Source: a virus
Direction: 5' to 3' (one strand)
DNA length: 64,000 nt
IMG/VR virus record: IMGVR_UViG_3300009506_000004
Location: 65,440 to 129,439 of that record
Shown here piece by piece: positions 6,293-51,294 of this stretch (the first letter of the stretch is position 1; the number at the start of each line of letters is the position of its first letter). Below the pieces are notes generated by a model. The model saw only the letters and a list, made by a program, of their open reading frames with translations, was not told the DNA's origin and ran no database searches. A program made the position numbers and the translations under genes.

Positions 6293-9061
6293 ATGATTCA
6301 ATCCACTGTCAGCCAAGCATTGTCATCGTTTCTTAAAAGTATACCATATAACTATGCTATAGATATTACTAATAGGTACTCTATAGACATGGAAGTACAA
6401 ATAATGGTGGATCCAATTAGGGGTAAACCCGTTTGGAAGGATGGTTCTATTGTTAGAAATACATGGACACCAGATTCTGATACAGATGATGGCGAACATT
6501 TAATCCAAAAATATGGATCATATCAATTTTTTCATATAAGGATACCAAGAAACTCTATGTCTAATCCAACGTATACCGACATACCAATGAAATACCCATT
6601 AGGTGAACATGTTGAATGTGTTGGAATGACTGGTTGGAATTGGGGTAAACGCCAATCAGAATGGGTAGCTTTTGATGTTGATGCGATAACTGGTCATGCT
6701 GTAGGTGTAGGGATTAACAATGAAATTATGGCTGAAGTAAAAGAACGTGCTTGTTCTATACCTTGGGTCCAAGTTAGAAAATCAACTGGTGGTGGTGGAT
6801 TACATTTTTATGTTTATTTTAATCCTAAAAAATTACCTGAAACAGAAAATCATACAGTTCATCAAGCTTTAGCAAGATGTGTTTTGGGTCTTATGGAAAA
6901 AGAAACTGGTTTTGATTTTAGAGGTAATATGGATGTTCTTGGTGGTAACATGTGGATATGGCATAGGAAAATAAATTTAGAAAATCGCGGTTTAGAATTA
7001 ATAAAAAACCATGATGATTATTGCCCTGAATTACCTAACAATTGGAGAGATAATCTAGAAGTCATACATGGAAAAACTACTAAAATTAGAGTACATGGTA
7101 TAAATGATAAAGATTATGTAGCATTTGAAAATCAAGCATCATCTAGAACAAAAATTATTATAGATGAAGTACATAAACAAATTGAAGAAAATATTGCAGA
7201 TTTAGGTTACTCAATAGTTTGGATCCCAGACCATCACTGTTGGCAAACACATTCTAAGGCATTTGAAGAGTTACATGAAAAATATCCAGAAGAATATTTA
7301 GGTATTTATAAAACTTTGTCTAAGGGTGAAAATAAAGGTAAACCAAATTCATTTGTTTTTCCTATGCAAAACGGTGGAATGAAAATAGTACGTTTTGGTA
7401 AAGGTACTAAAGAACATGAGACATGGATTCAAGATGGTTTAGATTGGACATGGACATATTTTAACAAATCTTCTACGCTTTATCAAGCAGCTGCGTTTTT
7501 TGATGGTTCTGAAGATCCTGATGGTAAAGGCTGGATATTTACTGATATCGAAAATGTAAAAAAAGTAACTGCATCATTAGGTGATAGATTACCATTAGAG
7601 GATTCTTGGGTTGATATTTTTGGGGAAACTCCTAGAAATATTTTACTTAGATCTAATAAAAACAATCAACTCGTAGTAGAAATGGATAAAAATCCAGATG
7701 AAAAAACTCCAAAAGGTTGGATTGATAAAGGCAGAAAATTTATTAAATTGCTAAGAAATGCATCAACTAATCCTATAAAAAATGAAGAAAATTTAGATAT
7801 AGATAACAGGGTTCGTGCAGTTGTAGACACAAATAATGAATTTTCTCAATGGATGTTATTAAATGAAGATGGAGATTGGATAGTTCAAACAAAAGACAAT
7901 GTACGTTCTGCTTTAAGAATTTGGTCACCTGGAGAAGGCGAAGATTTATTAGGACGATTAATTATAAGAAATTGGAAAGTTGTCAATGTACCTTTTCAAC
8001 CAGAATATTTAGGTCATAGACTTTGGAATAGATGCGCACCACATTTTAATATAATGCCAGGTGAATCTGGTTCACCACACCCTAACTGGGATTCTATACT
8101 AGAACATTGTGGACAAGATTTAGATAATGCAATAAGTACAAATATGTGGTGTAGAGAAAATGGTATTATGAACGGTGCTGATTATTTAGCTTATTGGCTT
8201 GCATTTGTTTTTAGGGATCCTTATTGTAAATTACCATATTTATTTTTCTATGGTCCTCAAAATAGTGGTAAATCAACTTTCCATGAAGCTGTTAGTCTTT
8301 TGGTGACCCGTGGTGTCCAAATAGCAGATGAAGCACTTAGAAATGCTAATGGATTCAATGGTGAATTAGCTGGTGCTGTTTTATGTATAGTTGAAGAAAC
8401 AAATCTTTCTACTACAGGTAGTATGGCATATAATAGGATGAAAGCTTTTGTAACAGGTGAGTACATTTTAATACACCCAAAAAGATTACAACCTTATATG
8501 GTAAAAAATACTACACATTGGATCCAATGTGCTAATTGTAGAAGTTATGTACCAATTTTTCCAGGTGACACTCGTATTACTATCTTTTTAGTTCCTATGC
8601 CAGACGGACCAGAAATTCCTAAGGATTTACTAATGGAAAAATTAAAACTTGAATCACCAGCATTTTTAAGAACTTTATTAGATATAAAATTACCACCCCC
8701 ACCAGGAAGATTACGGTTACCAGTAATAGCTACTGAGAGCAAAATAGAAGCTGAAAGAGAAGTTGAAAGTTTAGTTGATAAATTTTTATTTTCAAAATGT
8801 TATTATATTCCAGGGGCTATAGTAAAATTCTCAGATTTTTATACAAAAATGTGTGAATGGATGTCCAGAGATCAAGCATTTATATGGACATATCATAAAG
8901 TATGTAATGAGTTTAGAATAAGAGATTTTTTTCCTTATGTATTTGGGAGAGCTTTAAATAATATATCGTGTATAGGAAATTTATCGTTTGATCCAAATCA
9001 AGAGCATTCAGCATCTTGGATACGGAAAAAACAAAGATTAGAAAGAGAAGAAAATGAGTGA
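6293..9061 (+). CDS. AEP primase(-polymerase) fused to an SF3/D5-like helicase
   Basis: FDVD and STGGGGLHFY primase motifs; Walker A GPQNSGKST, Walker B LCIVEE, motif C WIQCAN. Confidence 0.85.
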   Translation: MIQSTVSQALSSFLKSIPYNYAIDITNRYSIDMEVQIMVDPIRGKPVWKDGSIVRNTWTPDSDTDDGEHLIQKYGSYQFFHIRIPRNSMSNPTYTDIPMKYPLGEHVECVGMTGWNWGKRQSEWVAFDVDAITGHAVGVGINNEIMAEVKERACSIPWVQVRKSTGGGGLHFYVYFNPKKLPETENHTVHQALARCVLGLMEKETGFDFRGNMDVLGGNMWIWHRKINLENRGLELIKNHDDYCPELPNNWRDNLEVIHGKTTKIRVHGINDKDYVAFENQASSRTKIIIDEVHKQIEENIADLGYSIVWIPDHHCWQTHSKAFEELHEKYPEEYLGIYKTLSKGENKGKPNSFVFPMQNGGMKIVRFGKGTKEHETWIQDGLDWTWTYFNKSSTLYQAAAFFDGSEDPDGKGWIFTDIENVKKVTASLGDRLPLEDSWVDIFGETPRNILLRSNKNNQLVVEMDKNPDEKTPKGWIDKGRKFIKLLRNASTNPIKNEENLDIDNRVRAVVDTNNEFSQWMLLNEDGDWIVQTKDNVRSALRIWSPGEGEDLLGRLIIRNWKVVNVPFQPEYLGHRLWNRCAPHFNIMPGESGSPHPNWDSILEHCGQDLDNAISTNMWCRENGIMNGADYLAYWLAFVFRDPYCKLPYLFFYGPQNSGKSTFHEAVSLLVTRGVQIADEALRNANGFNGELAGAVLCIVEETNLSTTGSMAYNRMKAFVTGEYILIHPKRLQPYMVKNTTHWIQCANCRSYVPIFPGDTRITIFLVPMPDGPEIPKDLLMEKLKLESPAFLRTLLDIKLPPPPGRLRLPVIATESKIEAEREVESLVDKFLFSKCYYIPGAIVKFSDFYTKMCEWMSRDQAFIWTYHKVCNEFRIRDFFPYVFGRALNNISCIGNLSFDPNQEHSASWIRKKQRLEREENE

Positions 9062-10466: not shown

Positions 10467-13400
10467 TTATGTTGGTAAATCACATGCATCACCAGCTGCT
10501 AATTGAAATACAGACCACGAACCATCATTTCCAGCTTCATACTGATGGCCAATCATGCCACCTTCTTGTCCGGGTTCTGGCATTTCACAACCAGGTTGTA
10601 TGTAGTCAAATTTTGTATAATAAACAGGATGATTAGCCCCTACAGTAGTTTTACTATCTATCAAAGATTGTAAAGCTTGTGCAGCAGCATCACGAGCAGA
10701 AGCTGAATCAAAATGTAATGTCTCAGTAGGCTCGGCTACTTGGTTACCTACCCAACAGCCATATTTCTCTGGTTCACTACAATAACACCAACCATTTGGC
10801 CTATTACATAAATATGGTGGTAATGGTTTTCTATCATCACACCATTCACCATTAGCTATACGGACAGTTGTTACTGTTATTGAATAAATTGTTAATGACC
10901 AAAAACATTTATTTTGTTTACGTAATTCTTCATCATCTGGTAATTCATCGGCATATTCTTTCTGCTTATCACCATCATCAGTTTCTGTTCCACCAGTATC
11001 ATTAAGGCTACCAGCCCCATCACCAGTACCTGCTCCTTGAGTGGAACCAGTACCAGTATTACCAACACCAGTTAGTTGATTTTGTAAAGCACTATTAGTA
11101 CCTTCTTGTTGAATGTTATTTGCGTCAGCATTTAATTTTGTTTGACTATATTCATTAACAGGTGACTGTTGCGGTGGAACTTCTGTATTATCATTATGTA
11201 TAGGAACAGTTGGTGTAGTATCATCAATATCAGATGGTTGCTGGTCACCATGATCTGGCCTACATCTCCCTTGTAGATCAATTGGTCTAGTATAAGTTGC
11301 TCCACCACTAATACTACTACAAGGTGAGTCACTACCAAAACTAAAACCTTGAGTTAATTGTAATGGGCTTCCTAAAACATGGCCGCTTGGGGCATCAACA
11401 TCAACATTAGGTCCAGAACCACCAGCATTGCCAAATTGTAAATCTTCATTAGTTGGATGAAGTGTATCTATTGATATTTGTGACGGGTAATGAAATGGAT
11501 AGGCTGTCATTTCCCCAGCTCTTACTGGAGTTTGAAGTACCAAATCAATAGCATGATCTTCTGAATTATAGACAGCTGTTTCAACTCTACATTTAATTAT
11601 TTCATCAGCTATATCCGGTAAATTTACATAACATCCGTCTATTGATTCAAGTGCTAATTTACTTATTGGGACTTGGCACATAATTCTTTTCCAAGTATTA
11701 GCCATTCTAATTAACCAAAAAGTAGCTGACTTAGTTACTAATTTTTGAGTGTTAAAACAATAAAAATCAAATGTTTCTTCTTGTGTCCCGTATTTTCTAA
11801 CATTATATCTAACAATAACTTTATACGGATCCTCTAAGTCAAGCGATGGTCGCCATTCAGCTATGAGTTTAGTAACTAAATCTTCTGTATTAGTATGATC
11901 CATTATTAATGAATTAGCTAACACATCACTTTCTGTTATTATACCATCTTCTGCTGGTTCTTCTGATAAATATGTTAAATGAAATTGGTCATTTCTTAAT
12001 GTTAAAGCACATCTATTTTGGAATGACATCTCTTGTAGTAATTGTAATATATTTTTTCTACCAGGAACCCTAAAATTCATAGGATATTTTACCATTTTTG
12101 TCCTGACTTCATCAAAACTATCATCCCATGTAAAATTAGTGTATTTGTTAATTAACCATTTCATTATATCAACCATATTTGGTCCTATGGTTGATGTTAA
12201 TGTTACATAAATATCATCCTCCCATCCATCACCGCGAGAAGATAGTGATTGTGTTAACACAACTTCAGATACTAAATATTCCTGGAAATTAGAATTTCTA
12301 GCATACCAATATGTATTTGGTACAGTTGTAAATTGACGTAAGTTACTGACACTAAACGTTTTCCATGCTTTTAAATAATGGACTGTAGAAGGTAATAAAT
12401 TTACAATATATACATATTCATCGTCACCAATTAATGTAACTTCTGATCCTGGGTCAGCCCAGAAAAATCCTACTTCTCTAAAACTCGATAAATAGTTCCA
12501 TGCTTCTTGCTCTAAACTAGTGTCATTTGCACCAACTAAATAAGCAGAGGAAGTCATAGAAATTTGCCAACCACTACATTCTGGTGGGAGCACACATGAC
12601 TGAATATATGGGTCAGTATTAGCACTATTATCAGTACCATAACCTGTATCACAACCGAAATTTTTGATTTCAGGTATAGGTACTGTTTCTAAAGCTGGAT
12701 GTATATATCGTTCAACACGGAAAGTATCACCATAGAATTTACCACTAACTTTAGCACCTGCAATATTTAAAGTAATAAATTTCTGCTGTGGAAACTTAGA
12801 GCCATTTATTATTTCTATTTCTTCATATTCATATTGTTGTTGCACAGCTAAATTTAATTCAGCTTCACAATAAATAGCTCTTTTTTTACATTCACATCTA
12901 GCATCTGTATTATATTGAGCTTCAATCTTTAATGGAGCAGCACCCCATACATTAGTAGCATGAGCCCATGAAGTTCTAAACCCTATGAATATAACTGGGC
13001 AGCAAACTTGCCTTGCTTGCTCAGCTCTAGGAGCAAGCATATAATCATGTATACCAAATCCAGTTTTTAAAATACCTGTCCTGGGGGATCTAGTTTTTAA
13101 AGCTGGTGAATTTTTTACTCTACCAAAGATAAGTGGCCATGGTTGACCTTGTAGATATTCTGGTACATATGTAAAATCACCCTCCTCCATTGAAAAACCA
13201 ACTTCAGCATCTTCAATCCTTGTAATAATATCAAAAGATACTGTTCTATCACCTTCATTCCATTGCATTGGGCTAGAAATTTGCCCCTTAAATATTAAAA
13301 ATTTGTCATCTAGTGATAAACCTGTAAACCATTGATAAACCCAACATGGTTGCTTATGAATATCATTTTGATTTATTATATTTTTTATTGTACCATCACT

Positions 13401-33022: not shown

Positions 33023-35325
33023 TTAACCGAGCAATAGAACGGCAAGGTTGTCGTCAAGGACAGCTGTTCCGCACAGCAAATCCAACACAACCTTAGTTCC
33101 ACCAGCATCGATATCATACTGCATAGTAGCGCGCATCGCAATGTCATTATAAGATGAAACAAAGGATCGAGCACCTTCAGACGCATCCGGTCGCGCTAAT
33201 GGTCGAGTGACCAACGCAAACGAATTACGATGAAATGCAACATTGAAATCACCAGCTGGGCCAGGGAAGGCACCATCGCCATCAGTTAACGCAAGATCAA
33301 GGGGTCGATCTAACAGAACCTTAACCTCAGTTGCACTAACTGTAATGGTTTCAATGACAGAATATGTATGACGTGTCGTAGGTGTTGTACCAAATGCAAT
33401 GAGCTGGCCAACTACAGGTGGTTTTCCAGATGTAAAACCATCAATACTAATATACTTAGCATAACCAGCAGAGTAGTTACCATTAACATCAGCCATCATA
33501 TAAACCGTGATAACAGCACCACTTTCAACATCATACTTAATAGCTTCGTTAAGTGTGGCAGCAGTTGTATCAGTTGTGTCATCAACTTCAGCTGTGATCC
33601 AAGTTGGCTGATCATTACCGGCCAGATTGGCAAATTCACCAACGTTACAAACATAATCTGTAACATCAAACGCTGTCAACGAACCAGTTGTACCCGCAGC
33701 AATAGCCGCAGTAGTAGCACCAAGAACTGTGTCACGCGAAGCAGTTGATAATACACCATTCACATTCTGGTCCATGAATGTGTCAAAACTACCAATACGG
33801 CCTAACAAAGCCTCTTCCAGCGCTGTTCCACCGTCACCACGTTTTTCTGAACTAACAAAAAGTTCAGTCTTTAGCATAGCTGTTTCGGACCCTGGAGCCA
33901 AAACTAACTTACGACCCGATGTATGGGCTAATGTTCGGTTTAACTTCTCTCGGGCTTCCAGCACAGTATCCCAAGCATTGCTGGATGTAAGATTAAGTAA
34001 CCGCCCAACACGATCTTCAGGGTCACCGATCAGCGCATGAGCCATACGACCGACTATAGCACGATCAATACCATTACCCATGGCTTTCATACCTGGGACT
34101 AAATGAACCTGAATAAGATCTTGCAAAGACTTCGACCGCTCACCATCCTTAATAACAAAACCAGCATACATATGCTGATTAAGTGGAACTTGTACGTTAG
34201 TAACAACAGCATCATTATACTCAGTTGTATCAGAATCTGTCTTTCGATACACCTTCATATCAGCTGGCTTACGTGTATTAACCACGTCACCATAATCTTT
34301 AACTTCCATCGAGAAATCCCGATGAACTAACATACCCATAATCATGTTCTCTTCGAGAACAGCAATAGACTCCCGTGCCCAAACTTCTGGGACAAGCATT
34401 TATGTTAACTATATATTTCTATATAGATCAGACTATATCTTCATCAACCAATTATAGCAAGATTGCAATTTATGTTTTGTAATTTCATTTTCTTGTTCTA
34501 GTATTGTATTACATTTTCTACATACAACACCTAATACTTTATTGTCTACGTGATGTATATAAGGTAATGTAAGAATATTATTACAACAATCACAATTTTT
34601 TGAATTTCTCAAAATTGATACTTGTTCAAATGTTAAATTATAAACATATGTTTTGACAAGTATTTTATAGCAATCTTTACATGTTGCATATAAACCATAT
34701 TTTCCACTTTGGTATTTTTGTTTATAGAAATTCTTCTTTGGTTTATATTGTTTGCAGCATTTGCATAATCGTTGAGTTGCGCGTGTAGTCGTTGAGGGGT
34801 CAGGTTCCTTTTGCTGACTTCCCTGCTGATTGACTCTATTGAATAGATTTTTACGATCTTTTTGTATAAATTCTAAACAGGACTTTATACGGTGTAAATC
34901 TTCTTTTGTTTCTTGTCCTAATGTTATATTACAATAATGACAAAGAATACCTTTAACCTTATGCTCAACATGATGAAGATTCTTTTTTAAATTTGTTAAA
35001 TCTTCACCACAACACATACATAAAGATTCTTTTCTAAAATTTATTACTTGTTCGCATGTAATACCAAGTCTATTAGCTGCTTTTTTAATAGACCAGCATT
35101 GTTTACAAATATTTCTATATTTTTTTGAATCTTTTCTAAAATGATATTCTTTAATAGATTTATTTTTTTTACATTTTGAACAAATTTTAAATATCGTACT
35201 ATTCACTTATCAAGTTGTTCCAGCATATAGCGCAATTCTTATTAGAAATCGCTTTCTAATAGGCCCATGTTCTAAGCGTCGTTATCATTGGCATAAGAAG
35301 CCAAAATTGTGTAAAAATAAAACAT
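33023..35325 (-). CDS. Major capsid protein (P22 coat/gp5-like, HK97 fold), spliced: exon 1 35275-35325, exon 2 33023-34396
   Basis: Exon 1 MFYFYTILASYANDNDA (GGGAG RBS) joins in frame to LVPEVWARES; GDVVNTRKP, NVAFHRNSFALVTRPLARP and LDLLCG are P22-coat-like motifs. Confidence 0.9.
34397..35274 (-). ncRNA. Group I intron (878 nt) in the major capsid gene
   Basis: 5' exon ends in U and the intron ends in G. P TATGCTGGAA (about 35218-35227), Q AATCAGCAGG (about 34822-34831), R TCAACGACTAC (34785-34795), S AAGATATAGTC (34431-34441). P3 TTGCGC/GCGCAA; P2 with a GCGA loop; P9 with a GAAA loop. Confidence 0.92.
34433..35206 (-). CDS. Intron-encoded homing endonuclease, two Zn-finger/endonuclease VII-like units
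   Basis: CxxC...HHV..KV.G..CxxCN..L twice, each preceded by CxxCK..K....(F/Y)..CKxC. Confidence 0.8.
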   Translation of the reverse strand: MNSTIFKICSKCKKNKSIKEYHFRKDSKKYRNICKQCWSIKKAANRLGITCEQVINFRKESLCMCCGEDLTNLKKNLHHVEHKVKGILCHYCNITLGQETKEDLHRIKSCLEFIQKDRKNLFNRVNQQGSQQKEPDPSTTTRATQRLCKCCKQYKPKKNFYKQKYQSGKYGLYATCKDCYKILVKTYVYNLTFEQVSILRNSKNCDCCNNILTLPYIHHVDNKVLGVVCRKCNTILEQENEITKHKLQSCYNWLMKI

Positions 35326-35393: not shown

Positions 35394-36254
35394 TTAACGT
35401 CTTTTATAATTCAAACCTAAAGCGGCTGGGTTCTCTTTTCTAAGTTTGAACCATTGTTCGTCTGTTAATCGTTTATGATCAACATTCCCAGACCCGATAT
35501 TACCACCATCGGTAGCGTTTTGGGAGCCAATACCTTCTCGAATATTATTCTTGAAGAAATTGCCCCATTGTGAAGGATTCTTTTTCATATACTCAACGGC
35601 TTCATCAGGCGTCATTTGAAGTCGTTCAGATACACCAGTATCCTCATTTTTAACTGTCATCGTGACCATAGGAATCAGTTGGCCAGTTGGCTGTCCTTTT
35701 GCATCTTTAGCTTCTACTAATTCTGTTTGACCACGTAATTGAACAATAATTTGCGAAGGATTAAAAGCCTCATGCTTAATAGCAGCAGATTGAAGTGCTT
35801 GGAAAATAGTAGATTCAGTATATCTATCTTCCCAAACTTTAGCTGCTTTTGTTGCTTCTTCTAATTGCTGCACATATTTATCTTCTTTTTGTTTATTATC
35901 GTAAGCAATCTGTTGTTCCTTTGTACGATGTCTAGCCTGAAGATCATCTAATTCCTTCTGTAATTTTTCTTTTTCTTCTTTACTAACATTTTGATTTCTC
36001 AAAAGTTCTTGATAACTAGTTTCTAATGAAGAATATTTATCTTGATGTTTTCTACGGTCTTCAGCTAAGAACTTATTGACATCATCTTGTGTGAATGTTT
36101 TACCAGAATCTGTTCCTTTACCAGAATCTGTTCCTTTACCAGAATCTGTTCCTTTACCAGAATCTGTTTCTTTACCAGAATCTATTCCATCACCAGAATC
36201 TGTTCCATCACCACTGCCTTCATAAGAAGCTAATATTTCATACCAAAATAACAT
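35394..36254 (-). CDS. Capsid scaffolding protein
   Basis: KTFTQDDVNKFLAEDRRK motif and coiled coil; upstream of the capsid gene; probable start MLFWY after a GGAGG RBS. Confidence 0.8.
   Translation of the reverse strand: MLFWYEILASYEGSGDGTDSGDGIDSGKETDSGKGTDSGKGTDSGKGTDSGKTFTQDDVNKFLAEDRRKHQDKYSSLETSYQELLRNQNVSKEEKEKLQKELDDLQARHRTKEQQIAYDNKQKEDKYVQQLEEATKAAKVWEDRYTESTIFQALQSAAIKHEAFNPSQIIVQLRGQTELVEAKDAKGQPTGQLIPMVTMTVKNEDTGVSERLQMTPDEAVEYMKKNPSQWGNFFKNNIREGIGSQNATDGGNIGSGNVDHKRLTDEQWFKLRKENPAALGLNYKRR
36101..36213 (-). repeat. 18-bp coding tandem repeat (GTDSGK)n
   Basis: ACCAGAATCTGTTCCTTT, about six degenerate copies. Confidence 0.85.
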
Positions 36255-36322
36255 AAATTCCTCCAATTGGAGTATAAATGACCCCACACTAAGAATTAGT
36301 TTAAGCGCGGTGGGTAATCGCT

Positions 36323-44620: not shown

Positions 44621-45316
44621 TTACATAAAATTATTGCTGTAATCTAATAAACCTTGTGCAATTGCTAAATAAGCACTGCGAAGAGTTTGGATATTTTTTA
44701 ATTCACTTTCATGTTCTTCCATTACCACTGCAATTTCTCTGCCCCATGGTAACCAATCTTCATAATTTTCCCCTAAAGCTTCTTTTAAATTAGATTTTAC
44801 AGAGAAAATTAAATCTTGTGGTTCAATAATCCTTGGATCTAATCCAGTTTTAATAGCTTCTGCCATTTTAGGTGCTAAATTACGATATTCTTCTGGTACT
44901 TTTGATACAGATGCTTTTGCTATCTCGCGCAAATTAAAAATATCTGGGTTAGGTGGATCGGGTGGATCGGGTGGATCGGGTGGATTGGGTGGATCGGGTG
45001 GATCGGGTGGATCGGGTGGATTTCCTACATCAATATTAAATCGTATGACTTTAAAACTAGCATCAGCATTAATAATTAAAACTAAGCCATTAATAGTCCT
45101 TGGTTTAAGGCCAGCCCCTAGAACAAGTACATGTCCATTTTCAAAAATATCAAATCGTTCTTTTTCATCATATATCACCCAGTAAACAATTGATTCTGTA
45201 TCTATACTTGCTACAATATAGTCACCTGGGCTTATCTTTTCTGGGTATATTTTAATTTCTTGTCCATAAGTAAATGAACTAAATAGTAATAGTAATGGAC
45301 ATAAATATTTGAACAT
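44621..45316 (-). CDS. Secreted two-domain protein with a (PDP)n linker
   Basis: Signal peptide; 9-bp GGTGGATCG repeat at about 44947-45020. Confidence 0.7.
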   Translation of the reverse strand: MFKYLCPLLLLFSSFTYGQEIKIYPEKISPGDYIVASIDTESIVYWVIYDEKERFDIFENGHVLVLGAGLKPRTINGLVLIINADASFKVIRFNIDVGNPPDPPDPPDPPNPPDPPDPPDPPNPDIFNLREIAKASVSKVPEEYRNLAPKMAEAIKTGLDPRIIEPQDLIFSVKSNLKEALGENYEDWLPWGREIAVVMEEHESELKNIQTLRSAYLAIAQGLLDYSNNFM

Positions 45317-46417: not shown

Positions 46418-46900
46418 TTGCTATATAATTTAATGACATGGATGAATAATATGGATACAAAAGCCAATATAATGGCTATTTTTAAAAATGTCCCCCGATT
46501 GGGGGATAGCTGGAAATATATACCATTATCGAATTTACCTATTAATACAAAAATAATAATTGTATTAAAAGACACCCCCTTTGTTGAAAATGAAGAAAAC
46601 TTAATTTTGATTCCAAGTGGAAGATACGAATTAACTGTAAAAATATGGCCAACCGTTTTATTTAGTCCTTATAAAAACAAGTCTATACTTATAAAACCAT
46701 ATTTTCGCATATTAGCACCAACTGCACCATTAGTAGCTAACTTTGATAAAAAATTAGTAACATATAAATTGACAACTGCTCCCGTATATTCTATAATTGT
46801 AGAAGGCACTAATATTAGACTTAATGCAAATGATAAACCTAAACAAAAACGAAAATTTAAGAGATATGGCTATAGACCATTAATAAGGAGAAAATTTTGA
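46418..46900 (+). CDS. Hypothetical protein (start probably at 46451)
   Basis: First ORF after the promoter; overlaps the next start. Confidence 0.6.
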   Translation: MLYNLMTWMNNMDTKANIMAIFKNVPRLGDSWKYIPLSNLPINTKIIIVLKDTPFVENEENLILIPSGRYELTVKIWPTVLFSPYKNKSILIKPYFRILAPTAPLVANFDKKLVTYKLTTAPVYSIIVEGTNIRLNANDKPKQKRKFKRYGYRPLIRRKF

Positions 46901-47409
46901 ATTTTATAAAACATTTAATAGATGCTTATGACCTAGCAAGAATGAGCCCTGATCCATCAAATCAATGTGGTGCAGTTCTCTTAAAAAGAAGAAAAAATGG
47001 AAGTTTATACCAAATAGCTGAAGGTTACAACCATTTCTATGATGGAATAGAACCAGAAGTAAGTGATCGTAATAAAAAACTCCAACGAATAGAACATGCT
47101 GAACGCGATTGTATTTATTATGCAACTAAATATGGACGCACTACAATGGGGGGAATTTTAGTTTGCCCATGGGTAGCTTGCTATGATTGTGCCAGAGCTA
47201 TTATCGGTAGTAGAATTGATATAGTAGTCTATCATCATGAACGATATCAATTAACCCCAGAACGATGGTTAGATTCAATAAATGAAAGTCTTAATTGGAT
47301 GAGAAATTCTGGAATTTTATTATTAGGAGTTAAAGGTCCAATCAATGCAGAACCTATTTTAGTGAATGGTCAACTTTGGTCACCTAAGGATTTAAAATTT
47401 ATGGAATAA
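46897..47409 (+). CDS. dCMP deaminase family protein
   Basis: SPDPSNQCGA, GYN, HAE and CYDCARAI zinc motifs. Confidence 0.9.
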   Translation: MNFIKHLIDAYDLARMSPDPSNQCGAVLLKRRKNGSLYQIAEGYNHFYDGIEPEVSDRNKKLQRIEHAERDCIYYATKYGRTTMGGILVCPWVACYDCARAIIGSRIDIVVYHHERYQLTPERWLDSINESLNWMRNSGILLLGVKGPINAEPILVNGQLWSPKDLKFME

Positions 47410-48350: not shown

Positions 48351-48869
48351 ATGTATTGTTCAATAGATATTGAGACAACCGGGTTAGATCCAAATAAACA
48401 TCAAATTTTAGAATTTGCTGCTGTATTATGGACCTGTGATGATATTATGCAATGCCCATATTTCTATAATATTATAATACCAAAAGGTGATATTATAGGG
48501 GAACCATATGCATTAATTATGAATATGCGTATTTTAAAAGCTATTATAGCTGGGAATGGGGTATCATTAGTACAAAATTTTGGAGATTTTACACATTGGT
48601 TGGAATATAATGGTATAAACCCGCATAAAAAAGCTTATGTTATTGGTAAAAACTTTGGAAATTTTGACCTCCAGTTTTTGAATAAAATCCCAGATTGGCC
48701 TGGAAGTTATTTCCATCATAGGATTTTAGATGTAGGTTCATTATACGCAACACGTGATGGTATACCTAGTACTGATTATCTCCCAAAACCACCTATAACT
48801 GAAGAGCCACATTACGCATTACATGATGCTAGATTAGACCTTTTTGCTGTTATGAAGAAATTAAAATGA
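48351..48869 (+). CDS. DEDDh exonuclease
   Basis: SIDIETTG, GKNFGNFD and HYALHDA motifs. Confidence 0.88.
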   Translation: MYCSIDIETTGLDPNKHQILEFAAVLWTCDDIMQCPYFYNIIIPKGDIIGEPYALIMNMRILKAIIAGNGVSLVQNFGDFTHWLEYNGINPHKKAYVIGKNFGNFDLQFLNKIPDWPGSYFHHRILDVGSLYATRDGIPSTDYLPKPPITEEPHYALHDARLDLFAVMKKLK

Positions 48870-49453
48870 TAGTTATACTTTTAGTCCTTATAATTTGTTC
48901 TACTACTTATGCAACTCCTCCCTTGTATGCTGTTAGAATTTGTTGTTATGATAATGATGATGCTATAATAGATAGTTGTGGTAGTGGTTCTCTCATAAAT
49001 AAAGAATATGTGATAACAAACCACCATGTAATAAAGGATGCAAGACTTGTAAGAGTTTTATTTAAAGATTGGCAATACGTCCCTGGAAGAATCGTTAAAA
49101 AAGATGCAAAAGTTGATTTGGCTTTAATTAAAATTCCAGAACAATCCAGAACTACTATTAGTTTTGCACCAAAGACAAGTAAAGGTGATATAGTTACATT
49201 ATTTGGATATGGACAAGGTTTACCGGGAAAAGGAGTAGGTATTATAAATAGTTTTGTACGTCGTACACAAAATGGACCATTAATAAATATGGAAATTGAT
49301 GGTTATGCAGTACGCTCTGGAGATTCTGGTGGCCCCGTAATAGATAGTAAAGGTAGACTATCTGGTGTTATTTTTGGTGCTACTAAAGATGAAAGTTATG
49401 CTGTTCGTATTGAAACTGTCAAATCTTTTATAAAAGGATATATTGATGATTAA
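48866..49453 (+). CDS. Secreted trypsin-like serine protease
   Basis: Signal peptide; TNHHV, DLAL and GDSGG motifs. Confidence 0.9.
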   Translation: MIVILLVLIICSTTYATPPLYAVRICCYDNDDAIIDSCGSGSLINKEYVITNHHVIKDARLVRVLFKDWQYVPGRIVKKDAKVDLALIKIPEQSRTTISFAPKTSKGDIVTLFGYGQGLPGKGVGIINSFVRRTQNGPLINMEIDGYAVRSGDSGGPVIDSKGRLSGVIFGATKDESYAVRIETVKSFIKGYIDD

Positions 49454-49784: not shown

Positions 49785-50095
49785 AAGAATTATTAACTGA
49801 ATTAGTTAGACGTATTATAGAATATATGGATGGGTCTCCAGTCGGCAACATGGGATCTTTAAATTCCATTAAGGTATCTTTTAAAAAAGATTTATTGATA
49901 GAAGATATATGGCTTCATCATATACTCCCAGTAATAGTAGATTTACAAATGTATTCTAAAGGAAAGTATATGTCTGCTCCACCTATGGATATTGAAAGTG
50001 ATTTTCTTAAGAAAACACCAAATCTATCCATTAAAATATCAGAAGATACAGTTTTTTCTGAAAAATATATATTAGAGTTTAGGAGTATTTTTTAA
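49781..50095 (+). CDS. Miniature capsid-fold paralog (putative)
   Basis: LNSIKVSF..IEDIWLHHILPVIVDL vs capsid LNQHMYAGF..LQDLIQVHLVPGMKAM. Confidence 0.45.
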   Translation: MKELLTELVRRIIEYMDGSPVGNMGSLNSIKVSFKKDLLIEDIWLHHILPVIVDLQMYSKGKYMSAPPMDIESDFLKKTPNLSIKISEDTVFSEKYILEFRSIF

Positions 50096-51052
50096 TGGTA
50101 AATATTTGGTGTGCTATCATATTAGCAGTGGGTATGTTTGGTATCGGAAATGGTTTAGTTCGTATTGCTGAATCATTAGAGCATATAAGAATCGTTTTTC
50201 CAAAATCTAAATTTACTTTTATGGTTTCTAAACAGAAAGATGAGGTAACAGGTGAAATCAATACACTATTGTTCTGAGTCAATCACACATATTGATGATT
50301 TAGATAAGATTTTGCGTCTTAAATGGTTTGGTTTTAGATTTAAACTTACACCTATTGATGATGATTATTGTAAAATAACAATTATATTTGATCCGAGAAA
50401 TTAATAAAATGAAACTTTTTAATGTATTATTAAATTATGAGTTACCTATAGATTTAAGTTTAGTTAATGCAGGTTTATTAGTTGACCTTAATTTAGTTGG
50501 AAATCTTAGCATAGCATGGGATCCAGATGGGCCAACAATGCTAACATTAACTTACGAAGATTTCAAAACATGTATAATAAACAGACATATTGATAAAGCC
50601 AAAATAAAAGAAGTTTTAGAGGAAAAATATGGAACTAAAATTTTTGGGGAGTATAATTAATGTACATAAGTTTAAATATATTAAATAATGCTGTTGTTGA
50701 GAATCCTGATGGCAGTAAACAATCAGTACAAGGATTACTTAAACTTAATATAAATGTTGACAATATTAATTTTATTATAAAACCACTTGGGCAGCCAGCC
50801 CTTGTTGTATCCAATGGTGTAAATTTTATAGCAACAGATAACATACCAGAAAATATTATTGGATTACATAGATTTCAAATTAAGGAAGGTGGGTTTGTTT
50901 GGCTTAGTCCAAAACATATAGTCTATTATGCAAGCACTGACGAAATAGGAATCTATCTTATAGGTTTTACTGGTGGAAATAGAGTTTCTATTAAGGCAAC
51001 TGGCCAAGAAGTTCATGATATGATTTCTGTAAGTATAATAACAACACCATGA
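50095..51052 (+). CDS. Small hypothetical genes (50095-50277 membrane protein; 50388-50660; 50660-51052 with an internal duplication)
   Basis: Co-oriented ORFs; 50660 contains two FlbD-like IN.D.I / LSPKHI units. Confidence 0.55.
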
Positions 51053-51294
51053 AAAGAAGAAATTTTTTAAAATTAGCGTCATTAGCTCCTTTAGTATTTT
51101 TAACACCATTACCTAAATTAGCACCAAAACCACAAGGAACACTTTGGACTACACACCAATTTGAAGAAAATGTAGTTATTAAAAATGGTGGACCATTAGA
51201 ATGGTGTATAGCAGAACGCTGGGCTGAAGAAAGTTTAAGTATATTAGAAGAAAATATGATAATATCAGAATTAATTCATAGGGATTTTATATGA
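51049..51294 (+). CDS. Tat-signal protein carrying a copy of the major capsid N-terminal segment
   Basis: MKRRNFLK twin-arginine motif; ERWAEESLSILEENMIISELIHRDF vs capsid EVWARESIAVLEENMIMGMLVHRDF (16/25 identical). Confidence 0.85.
   Translation: MKRRNFLKLASLAPLVFLTPLPKLAPKPQGTLWTTHQFEENVVIKNGGPLEWCIAERWAEESLSILEENMIISELIHRDFI

Follow-up and report, generated by a model that had tools for sequence, protein, structure and literature searches.

A small phage protein joining a putative twin-arginine signal to a capsid N-arm helix: a candidate exported capsid mimic

The question raised by the locus described here is why a phage should place a fragment of a capsid protein behind an apparent export signal, as capsid proteins are regarded as strictly cytoplasmic building blocks. 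The DNA examined (the window, 64,000 nucleotides in full, to which all coordinates refer unless otherwise indicated) is the second half of a 129,439-bp IMG/VR virus record (IMGVR_UViG_3300009506_000004), which has direct terminal repeats and a G+C content of 34% and comes from an uncultured marine-sediment phage. An open reading frame (ORF) of 81 amino acids (aa) in this window, ORF81 (P0002; 51049..51294, + strand), encodes a putative twin-arginine translocation (Tat) signal, a linker and a helix which resembles the N-terminal arm (N-arm) of the capsid protein. ORF81 is a real gene, and within a family of phage proteins that has been conserved it has the shortest form. The balance of the evidence tips slightly towards its product being a mimic, directed to the Tat pathway, of the capsid helix on which the scaffold docks, a judgement which extends to its identity and to the logic of mimicry and not to its role.

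The capsid-like segment and the family that carries it

The 81-aa frame at 51049-51294, which had been proposed in a preliminary description of this DNA, was found to be open and to begin at the first start codon after an in-frame stop, and it is joined to both of its neighbouring ORFs by ATGA overlaps. The product starts with MKRRNFLK and ends with ...ERWAEESLSILEENMIISELIHRDFI, its stop codon lying one residue past the motif HRDF. Residues 1-22 (51049..51114, +) contain the twin-arginine motif KRRNFLK (residues 2-8) followed by the 13-residue uncharged stretch LASLAPLVFLTPLP. Residues 23-51 (51115..51201, +) form a linker, modelled with low confidence, in which the stretch GTLWTT.QF is common to the proteins P0004, P0007, P0005, and P0008. 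Residues 52-80 (51202..51288, +) form a single helix homologous to the capsid N-arm, as indicated by an AlphaFold2 (AF2) model, by BLASTP and by the family alignment. This helix is the sole confident element of the AF2 model, its 10-residue blocks having predicted local distance difference test (pLDDT) values of 74, 92, and 79.

The major capsid protein of the same phage is a P22-like coat protein, exon 2 of which lies at 33023..34396 (- strand; the ORF as called, P0001, 33023..34399, is of 458 aa). P0001 matched PF11651 with an E value of 4e-26 and phrog_283 with 7e-51, its AF2 model has a mean pLDDT of 81.9, and the best structural matches of this model in Foldseek were the coat proteins of Sf6, P22, and CUS-3, with encapsulins also among the matches. 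In BLASTP, residues 54-80 of ORF81 matched residues 3-29 of P0001 (encoded by 34313..34393, -), with 16 of the 27 positions identical, 22 of the 27 positive and an E value of 1e-10; the identity of 16 out of the C-terminal 25 residues noted in the preliminary description was likewise recovered against residues 5-29 of the capsid ORF. When the whole 129-kb genome was searched in six frames, the capsid was the sole second match (E 3.8e-7), and in a phmmer search against the 630 ORFs of the genome it was the only significant one (E 1.1e-6, the next best being 0.7). The counterpart of the ORF81 helix in the capsid model is made up of helices 4-18 and 21-24. Beyond this 27-residue N-arm nothing of the capsid is held in common, as ORF81 lacks the core of the HK97 fold (E-loop, P domain with spine helix, and A domain), and no match for it was found in Pfam or PHROG, including no Pfam capsid match.

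The preliminary description had also called the matching segment the N-terminal segment of the capsid. The homology to the N-arm stands, but the segment is not the true N-terminus, since an exon of 17 codons ending in ANDNDA precedes it on the far side of an intron (exon 1, 35275..35325, -; assigned from the sequence and from the uninterrupted N-termini of relatives). Exon 2 begins at 34396 with LVPEV, and the capsids of relatives are uninterrupted and start about 15 residues earlier, with an extension ending in ANDND. The intervening group I intron (878 nt; 34397..35274, -) is located at the N-terminal edge of the N-arm and contains an endonuclease VII/HNH ORF (34433..35206; phrog_2633, E 7e-18). 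Its match to RF00028, at 34411-34443, is a partial one covering the 3' part of the model, and at 28.1 bits (E 1e-4) it stays below the gathering score, which is 50. In ORF81 and its relatives the capsid-like part extends 2-3 residues across the position of the intron junction, and the family therefore descends from an uninterrupted capsid gene.

To identify homologs of ORF81, an exhaustive phmmer search of 1.84 billion representatives was carried out with a cut-off of E 0.001, and it gave 17 matches at or below this value including the query itself. The query and two long repetitive matches (P0003, 1309 aa with 6 matched stretches, and P0006, 691 aa with 12) were set aside. According to the preliminary description, its reading would be contradicted by homologs in which the RR motif or the capsid-like segment was missing. 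The outcome favours that reading, since of the 14 short or medium matches 13 carry both modules, and in P0013 the N-terminus is cut off. The matches that span essentially the full length of ORF81 are P0005, P0008, P0010, P0011, P0016, P0017, and P0018 (residues 1-80) and P0004 (residues 1-76). A profile constructed from 14 short members, ORF81 included, detected 108 proteins of 44-240 aa, ORF81 itself being recovered with an E value of 5e-25. By a regular-expression count both modules are present in 29 of 114 stored proteins, with P0118 one more; about 8 others look like members with miscalled starts, and the other 77 or so are partial capsid genes. About 30 proteins hence share the same build, in which a linker connects an RR signal to the N-arm motif of the capsid. 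Most of them are known as proteins from short metagenomic contigs, the genome position having been read for four IMG/VR records (G000, the present phage, G006, G007, and G008).

In a 14-row alignment of the family, R3, R4, F6, W58, and L66 are invariant, and L7, E56, A59, L63, E68, H77, and D79 are conserved in at least 90% of the rows. The N-arm motif of the family may be written as (I/V)PE.WA.E.L.(I/V)LEENM....(L/I).HRDF, and ORF81 agrees with the family definition throughout. The positions conserved in the capsid-like part are those that are invariant or nearly so in an alignment of 27 capsids, viz. P4, W7, E10, L15, N18, L24, R27, and D28, together with E5, E17, and F29. Other searches were less informative: a near-length word-index search with ORF81 returned only the query, a misleading result in view of the family recovered by the exhaustive search; when ORF81 was compared with the GenBank phage collection by tblastn, nothing above noise (E 6) appeared, and the capsid itself has only distant relatives in that collection (21-30% identity). 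In the ESM Atlas no match of at least 0.9 was found for ORF81, and the nearest feature clusters, which include Tat-signal proteins, can serve as leads only. Full-text literature searches found no description of Tat-signal derivatives of capsid proteins.

The members of this family form a nested deletion series in which ORF81, with the N-arm alone, is the shortest form. At one end of the series are P0015 and P0118, which consist of a Tat signal, a linker of about 60 residues and the capsid core without its insertion domain. In P0015 (387 aa) two parts of the capsid are recognisable, residues 2-187 (with 35% identity and an E value of 3e-39) and residues 386-456 (with 44% identity and an E value of 2e-16), the insertion domain between them being absent. 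P0118 (405 aa) has the same two parts and is 73% identical to P0015 over residues 1-130. Less of the capsid is retained in P0014 (241 aa). In P0038, P0045, P0083, P0004, P0007, P0005, and P0008 the N-arm is fused directly to the last 35 or so capsid residues, which comprise the C-terminal strands, and most of these fusions end in ...LG or ...LD, the capsid ending in ...LLG. Most of the other members stop within about 15 residues of HRDF, the short forms including P0016 (81 aa), P0023 (83 aa), P0026 (77 aa), P0111 (63 aa), and P0114 (68 aa). The N-arm is the sole piece of the capsid that was found in every member, and from these sequences the family is best regarded as descended from a paralog of a P22-like major capsid protein.

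The age of this relationship can be judged from the divergence of the two copies within the present genome. Their DNA, described earlier as clearly diverged, is indeed identical at only 47 of 81 positions; the third codon positions agree in 12 of 27 codons, with 9 codons differing synonymously and 11 non-synonymously. The ORF81 segment is identical to its own capsid at 16 of 27 positions, compared with a median of 17 of 27 for 83 distinct capsid N-arms, and 43 of these 83, all from other phages, are closer to ORF81 than is the capsid of its own genome. The copies in G006 and G007 are likewise no closer to their own capsids than to others. In view of this lack of any special likeness to the resident capsid, of the saturation of third positions and of the conservation of the family, ORF81 is to be regarded as an old paralog that has been maintained by selection, and neither as a recent copy nor as a product of gene conversion. 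The suggestion in the preliminary description that selection had acted on the peptide, rather than a duplication having occurred recently, is therefore borne out, both modules being conserved across a family that spans 34% to 60% G+C with no special likeness to the resident capsid. However, the argument originally given for it (diverged DNA and conservative substitutions) could not show this, as a recent capture from a distant capsid gene would look alike.

The N-terminal signal and its relatives

The twin-arginine consensus (S/T-R-R-x-F-L-K) is matched near the N-terminus of ORF81 by K-R-R-N-F-L-K at residues 2-8. The pattern RR.FLK, which the preliminary description had reported and which is present as MKRRNFLK, would be expected 0.046 times by chance among the 630 ORFs of the genome, where it was observed twice. 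The 13 uncharged residues that follow K8 have a mean Kyte-Doolittle value of 1.66 and are, like those of the family in general (1.1 to 2.2), moderately hydrophobic. In each of the 31 listed members an F or L comes after the RR, with an uncharged stretch next to it; the RR itself is found no later than residue 11 in 30 of these proteins, and at residue 21 in P0089. When 14 members were compared with profiles of known signals, 12 matched the Tat-signal model TIGR01409 at E <= 1 (best 1.4e-4), six matched PF10518 (best 2.2e-6; P0010 also has a precomputed match to this family) and five matched the Rieske Tat-signal family PF10399. Candidate cleavage sites (VSA, ADA, SVA, or GVA) were seen by eye in several of the relatives, and it is possible, from the sequence of ORF81, that its own signal serves as an uncleaved anchor.

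The phage also encodes a TatA-like protein of 56 aa (52335..52505, +), located 1 kb downstream of ORF81 and matching PF02416 above its cut-off (E 2e-9). Literature searches found no paper on a phage-encoded TatA, and in a 2026 Tat review phages are mentioned only in other contexts. Besides ORF81, two further ORFs of this phage have RR signals. One of them, of 159 aa (53108..53587, +), is a candidate Tat lipoprotein, in which RRDLLK precedes an ISSC resembling a lipobox; neither Pfam nor PHROG gave a match for it, and in phmmer against the 630 ORFs it found nothing better than E 1.5. The other, of 164 aa, lies outside the window on the - strand (genome 58569-59063; L212 270-764), contains ...ERRNFLK... 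with SNA and then E past the hydrophobic stretch, and has no Pfam match. Additionally, a single-protein scan of IMG/VR gave one signal-only locus (L003, 4759-5211, +), a 150-aa ORF with 52% identity to ORF81 over its first 29 residues (MKRRNFLK...), the remainder of which is unrelated to ORF81; by eye, it lies just upstream of two terminase-like ORFs. In a related 101-kb phage (G010, the record of L054), segments at 11091-11198 and 6842-6916 (+) lie in open frames of 158 aa and 246 aa, respectively, and resemble the family profile in its Tat-signal part alone. RR-signal proteins may be common in this phage lineage.

Proposed role and competing explanations

The proposed mimicry builds upon what is known of the N-arm in other phages. 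In the P22 procapsid the N-arm is an alpha-helix in which coat residues D14, E15, and E18 hold R293 and K296 of the C-terminal helix-loop-helix of the scaffold (PMC9965877), and for phage 80alpha contacts between the C-terminal helix of the scaffold and the N-arm helix are described likewise (PMC5644958). In the present phage the scaffolding protein (35394..36287, -; phrog_206, E 1e-9) has a conserved basic C-terminal end, and D270, Q278, R283, P287, L290, G291, and L292 are invariant in a 30-row alignment; by analogy with these systems, it is the candidate natural ligand of the N-arm. The N-terminal part of this protein has tandem GKGTDS/GKETDS repeats which are not in the consensus of its relatives. 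On the side of ORF81, the acidic residues E56, E60, E61, E67, and E68 are kept.

As we envisage it, the host Tat translocase would recognise ORF81, perhaps with the assistance of the phage's own TatA, and the helix would be delivered to the inner membrane or past it, where it would be free or, if the signal is not cleaved, tethered. Because the N-arm helix docks the C-terminal helix of the scaffold in P22 and 80alpha, the exported helix could act there as a mimic of the docking site and bind whatever bears a scaffold-like docking motif. As to its role, our committed guess, held with low confidence, is that of a decoy in the envelope which counters incoming phages of its own lineage (kin exclusion), and this is ranked first because the gene is an accessory one, is sporadic and is found among exported proteins. 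Ranked second is a role in which the scaffold of the phage itself is captured at the Tat translocase, with membrane tethering or co-export as the result. The more general proposal, that this lineage exports a scaffold-docking helix which serves either as a decoy, binding a scaffold-like docking motif on a protein released by kin phages as they enter, or as a carrier of its own partner across the membrane, and that it represents a new class of factor, the exported capsid mimic, is put forward only tentatively.

The genomic setting of ORF81 is an accessory block on the strand opposite to that of the structural genes. In this block are found a dCMP deaminase (46897..47409), an RNase T-like exonuclease (48351..48869) and a trypsin-like serine protease (48866-49453, +; PF13365, E 6e-20), the last of which has a hydrophobic N-terminus resembling an ordinary signal peptide. 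A 231-aa ORF at 44621-45316 (-) has a hydrophobic N-terminus and a long PPDPPDPPDPPNPPDPPDPPDPPNP repeat. No conserved neighbours of the gene were found: within the 43-64 kb part of the window, ORF81 is the sole ORF with a homolog near the corresponding gene of the other carriers. Two sequencing entries contain the region in full and may be the source samples. Two sequencing runs of another study, labelled as soil metagenomes, contain identical 151-nt contigs from 50000-52600, none of which covers ORF81 and which have no variants.

The carriers detected in IMG/VR represent three distinct phages, namely G000 (34% G+C), G006 (136.5 kb, 60%), and G007/G008 (56%), the latter two records being of one phage with 1 difference in 20 kb. 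All four records have a capsid gene as well, at a distance of 17-36 kb from the Tat-N-arm gene, and some relatives are classed as proviruses. A scan of IMG/VR with a subfamily alignment covered 80 loci, of which only G007 and G008 were of the Tat type; among the other matched frames of the newly fetched loci (L129 to L199), a regular-expression count gave 60 long capsid frames and 9 short or cut ones. A scan of genome contigs gave seven loci, all of them capsid or decayed capsid genes and none of the Tat type, in metagenome-assembled genomes (MAGs) labelled Planctomycetota, Anaerolinea, Saccharibacteria, and an archaeon. In L125, L126, and L127, which come from MAGs with the labels Planctomycetaceae and archaeon, the capsid genes of the lineage are cut to open frames of 237, 183, and 225 aa and look like decaying prophages.

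A number of observations weigh against the exported-mimic reading. The scores of ORF81 itself fall below the curated cut-offs of both Tat models, being 13.7 bits (E 0.063) for TIGR01409, where 16.7 is required, and 11.2 bits for PF10518, where 22.7 is required. ORF81 has no clear A-x-A site for signal peptidase; only KLA is available, and with Pro directly after it this makes a poor site. Among five records searched TatA was found only in G000, and it is absent from the carriers G006, G007, and G008; it is therefore no conserved partner of the Tat-N-arm gene. No TatC was found in the phage, and a host TatBC is assumed. The gene is sporadic: of 25 large records with a capsid of this lineage only 3 carry it, as do 2 of the 7 records with a completeness of 90% or more, and no RNA run is listed among the sequencing runs that match the ORF81 region. 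The scaffold is cytoplasmic, so that an exported mimic has no obvious access to it, and the docking analogy relies upon P22 and 80alpha, whose sequence identity to the P0001 model is only 11-14%. A complex prediction for scaffold residues 200-297 with ORF81 residues 45-81 returned no verdict (score 0.00) and weighs neither for nor against binding.

The alternative that survives best, possible but in our view rather doubtful, is that ORF81 acts in the cytoplasm, where its N-arm helix would capture the phage's own scaffold or procapsids. The Tat signal would then keep the complex at TatBC on the membrane, which would become a site of assembly, or would lead to hitchhiker export. In P22 and 80alpha it is the scaffold C-terminus that the N-arm naturally binds; that of the present lineage is strongly conserved, the acidic residues that might face it (E56, E60, E61, E67, and E68) have been kept, and Tat transports folded proteins and complexes. 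However, ORF81 belongs to an accessory block on the opposite strand, outside the head module, only 2 of 7 near-complete relatives have the gene, so that assembly does not need it, and no computed result lends support to binding.

It is unlikely that ORF81 is just a small capsid-derived membrane protein, with an N-terminus that works as a common Sec signal or as a membrane anchor and an RR that is incidental. The scores of ORF81 under the Tat cut-offs would fit this, and the uncharged stretch could span a membrane; but RR followed by F or L is kept in all 31 listed members while the rest of the signal varies freely, TIGR01409 is matched by 12 of 14 members, and the stretches are only moderately hydrophobic (mean Kyte-Doolittle 1.1 to 2.2). 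We give slightly less credence again to the view that a longer Tat-capsid paralog has decayed and left ORF81 as its remnant, open as a frame but functionless, as could be suggested by its having the shortest architecture of the series with a stop one residue past HRDF, by the rarity of the family and by the lack of any listed RNA run among those matching its sequence. In a remnant one would hardly expect every invariant or nearly invariant position of the family to be intact, the ATGA overlaps with both neighbours to be retained, and the peptide to be kept with saturated third codon positions, and in P0016, P0023, P0026, P0111, and P0114 the protein likewise ends within about 15 residues of the same motif. 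Lastly, a capsid likeness that arose by chance, by gene conversion or by a recent duplication within the genome, in which the homing-endonuclease intron lying exactly at the edge of the N-arm coding DNA might have had a part, is very improbable and, as far as the present computations can tell, is refuted by the E values (1e-10 pairwise and 3.8e-7 genome-wide), by the DNA identity of only 47/81, by the 43 of 83 other-phage N-arms that are closer to ORF81 than its own capsid and by the signal and linker shared with family members in other phages.

What the family retains throughout is exactly two things, a twin-arginine signal and the capsid helix on which the scaffold docks in model phages, which means that selection maintains a second use of this interface, apart from the building of shells. 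Export of the helix, if it occurs, would point to an unrecognised envelope-side step in phage competition or assembly, and it would provide a compact pair consisting of a 29-residue peptide and its ligand. The deletion series offers a rare natural map of the part of the HK97 fold that is sufficient for a derived function, and if the exported-mimic reading is true, the evolution of such a mimic would be documented by the series, in which a full HK97 core is reduced to one helix. The family may be viewed as exapted capsid proteins or as accessory Tat substrates of phages, with a genuine possibility that it constitutes a factor of a new kind.

Comparison with known systems

Of the known proteins, the P22-like coat proteins (P22 gp5, Sf6, and CUS-3; PF11651, phrog_283) are the closest, residues 54-80 of ORF81 being homologous to the N-arm of the capsid of this phage, which belongs to this type, and modelled as the same helix. 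ORF81 differs from them in lacking the HK97 core, which means that it cannot form a shell, and in having a Tat signal in place of the short N-terminal extension. With Tat signal peptides (TIGR01409 and PF10518, and the uncleaved Rieske-type anchors of PF10399) it shares KRRNFLK and the uncharged stretch that follows; in contrast to these, its passenger is a 29-residue capsid-derived helix with no sequence match to a cofactor enzyme, and it has no clear cleavage site.

A parallel in logic is provided by CpmB of SaPI1 and the scaffold of 80alpha, where a small accessory protein copies one side of the interface between scaffold and N-arm (PMC5644958). The likeness is in logic only, as CpmB copies the scaffold side, is cytoplasmic in procapsids and belongs to a pirate element, whereas ORF81 copies the capsid side, has an export signal and is the phage's own. 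Among phages, T5 Llp and T4 Imm/Sp are reportedly small exported superinfection-exclusion proteins, and ORF81 resembles them as a small, predicted envelope protein which is encoded in an accessory region and is sporadic among relatives. No sequence relation to them was found, although no search was aimed at one. To our knowledge, none of these is derived from a virion protein, which ORF81 appears to be, and its exclusion function is a guess. Among the exapted HK97-fold proteins, encapsulins are cytoplasmic and are not known to have a Tat signal. The longest members P0015 and P0118 resemble them in having the HK97 core without the insertion domain and in being of about encapsulin size, whereas the short members, including ORF81, have lost the fold and have kept the signal and the N-arm.

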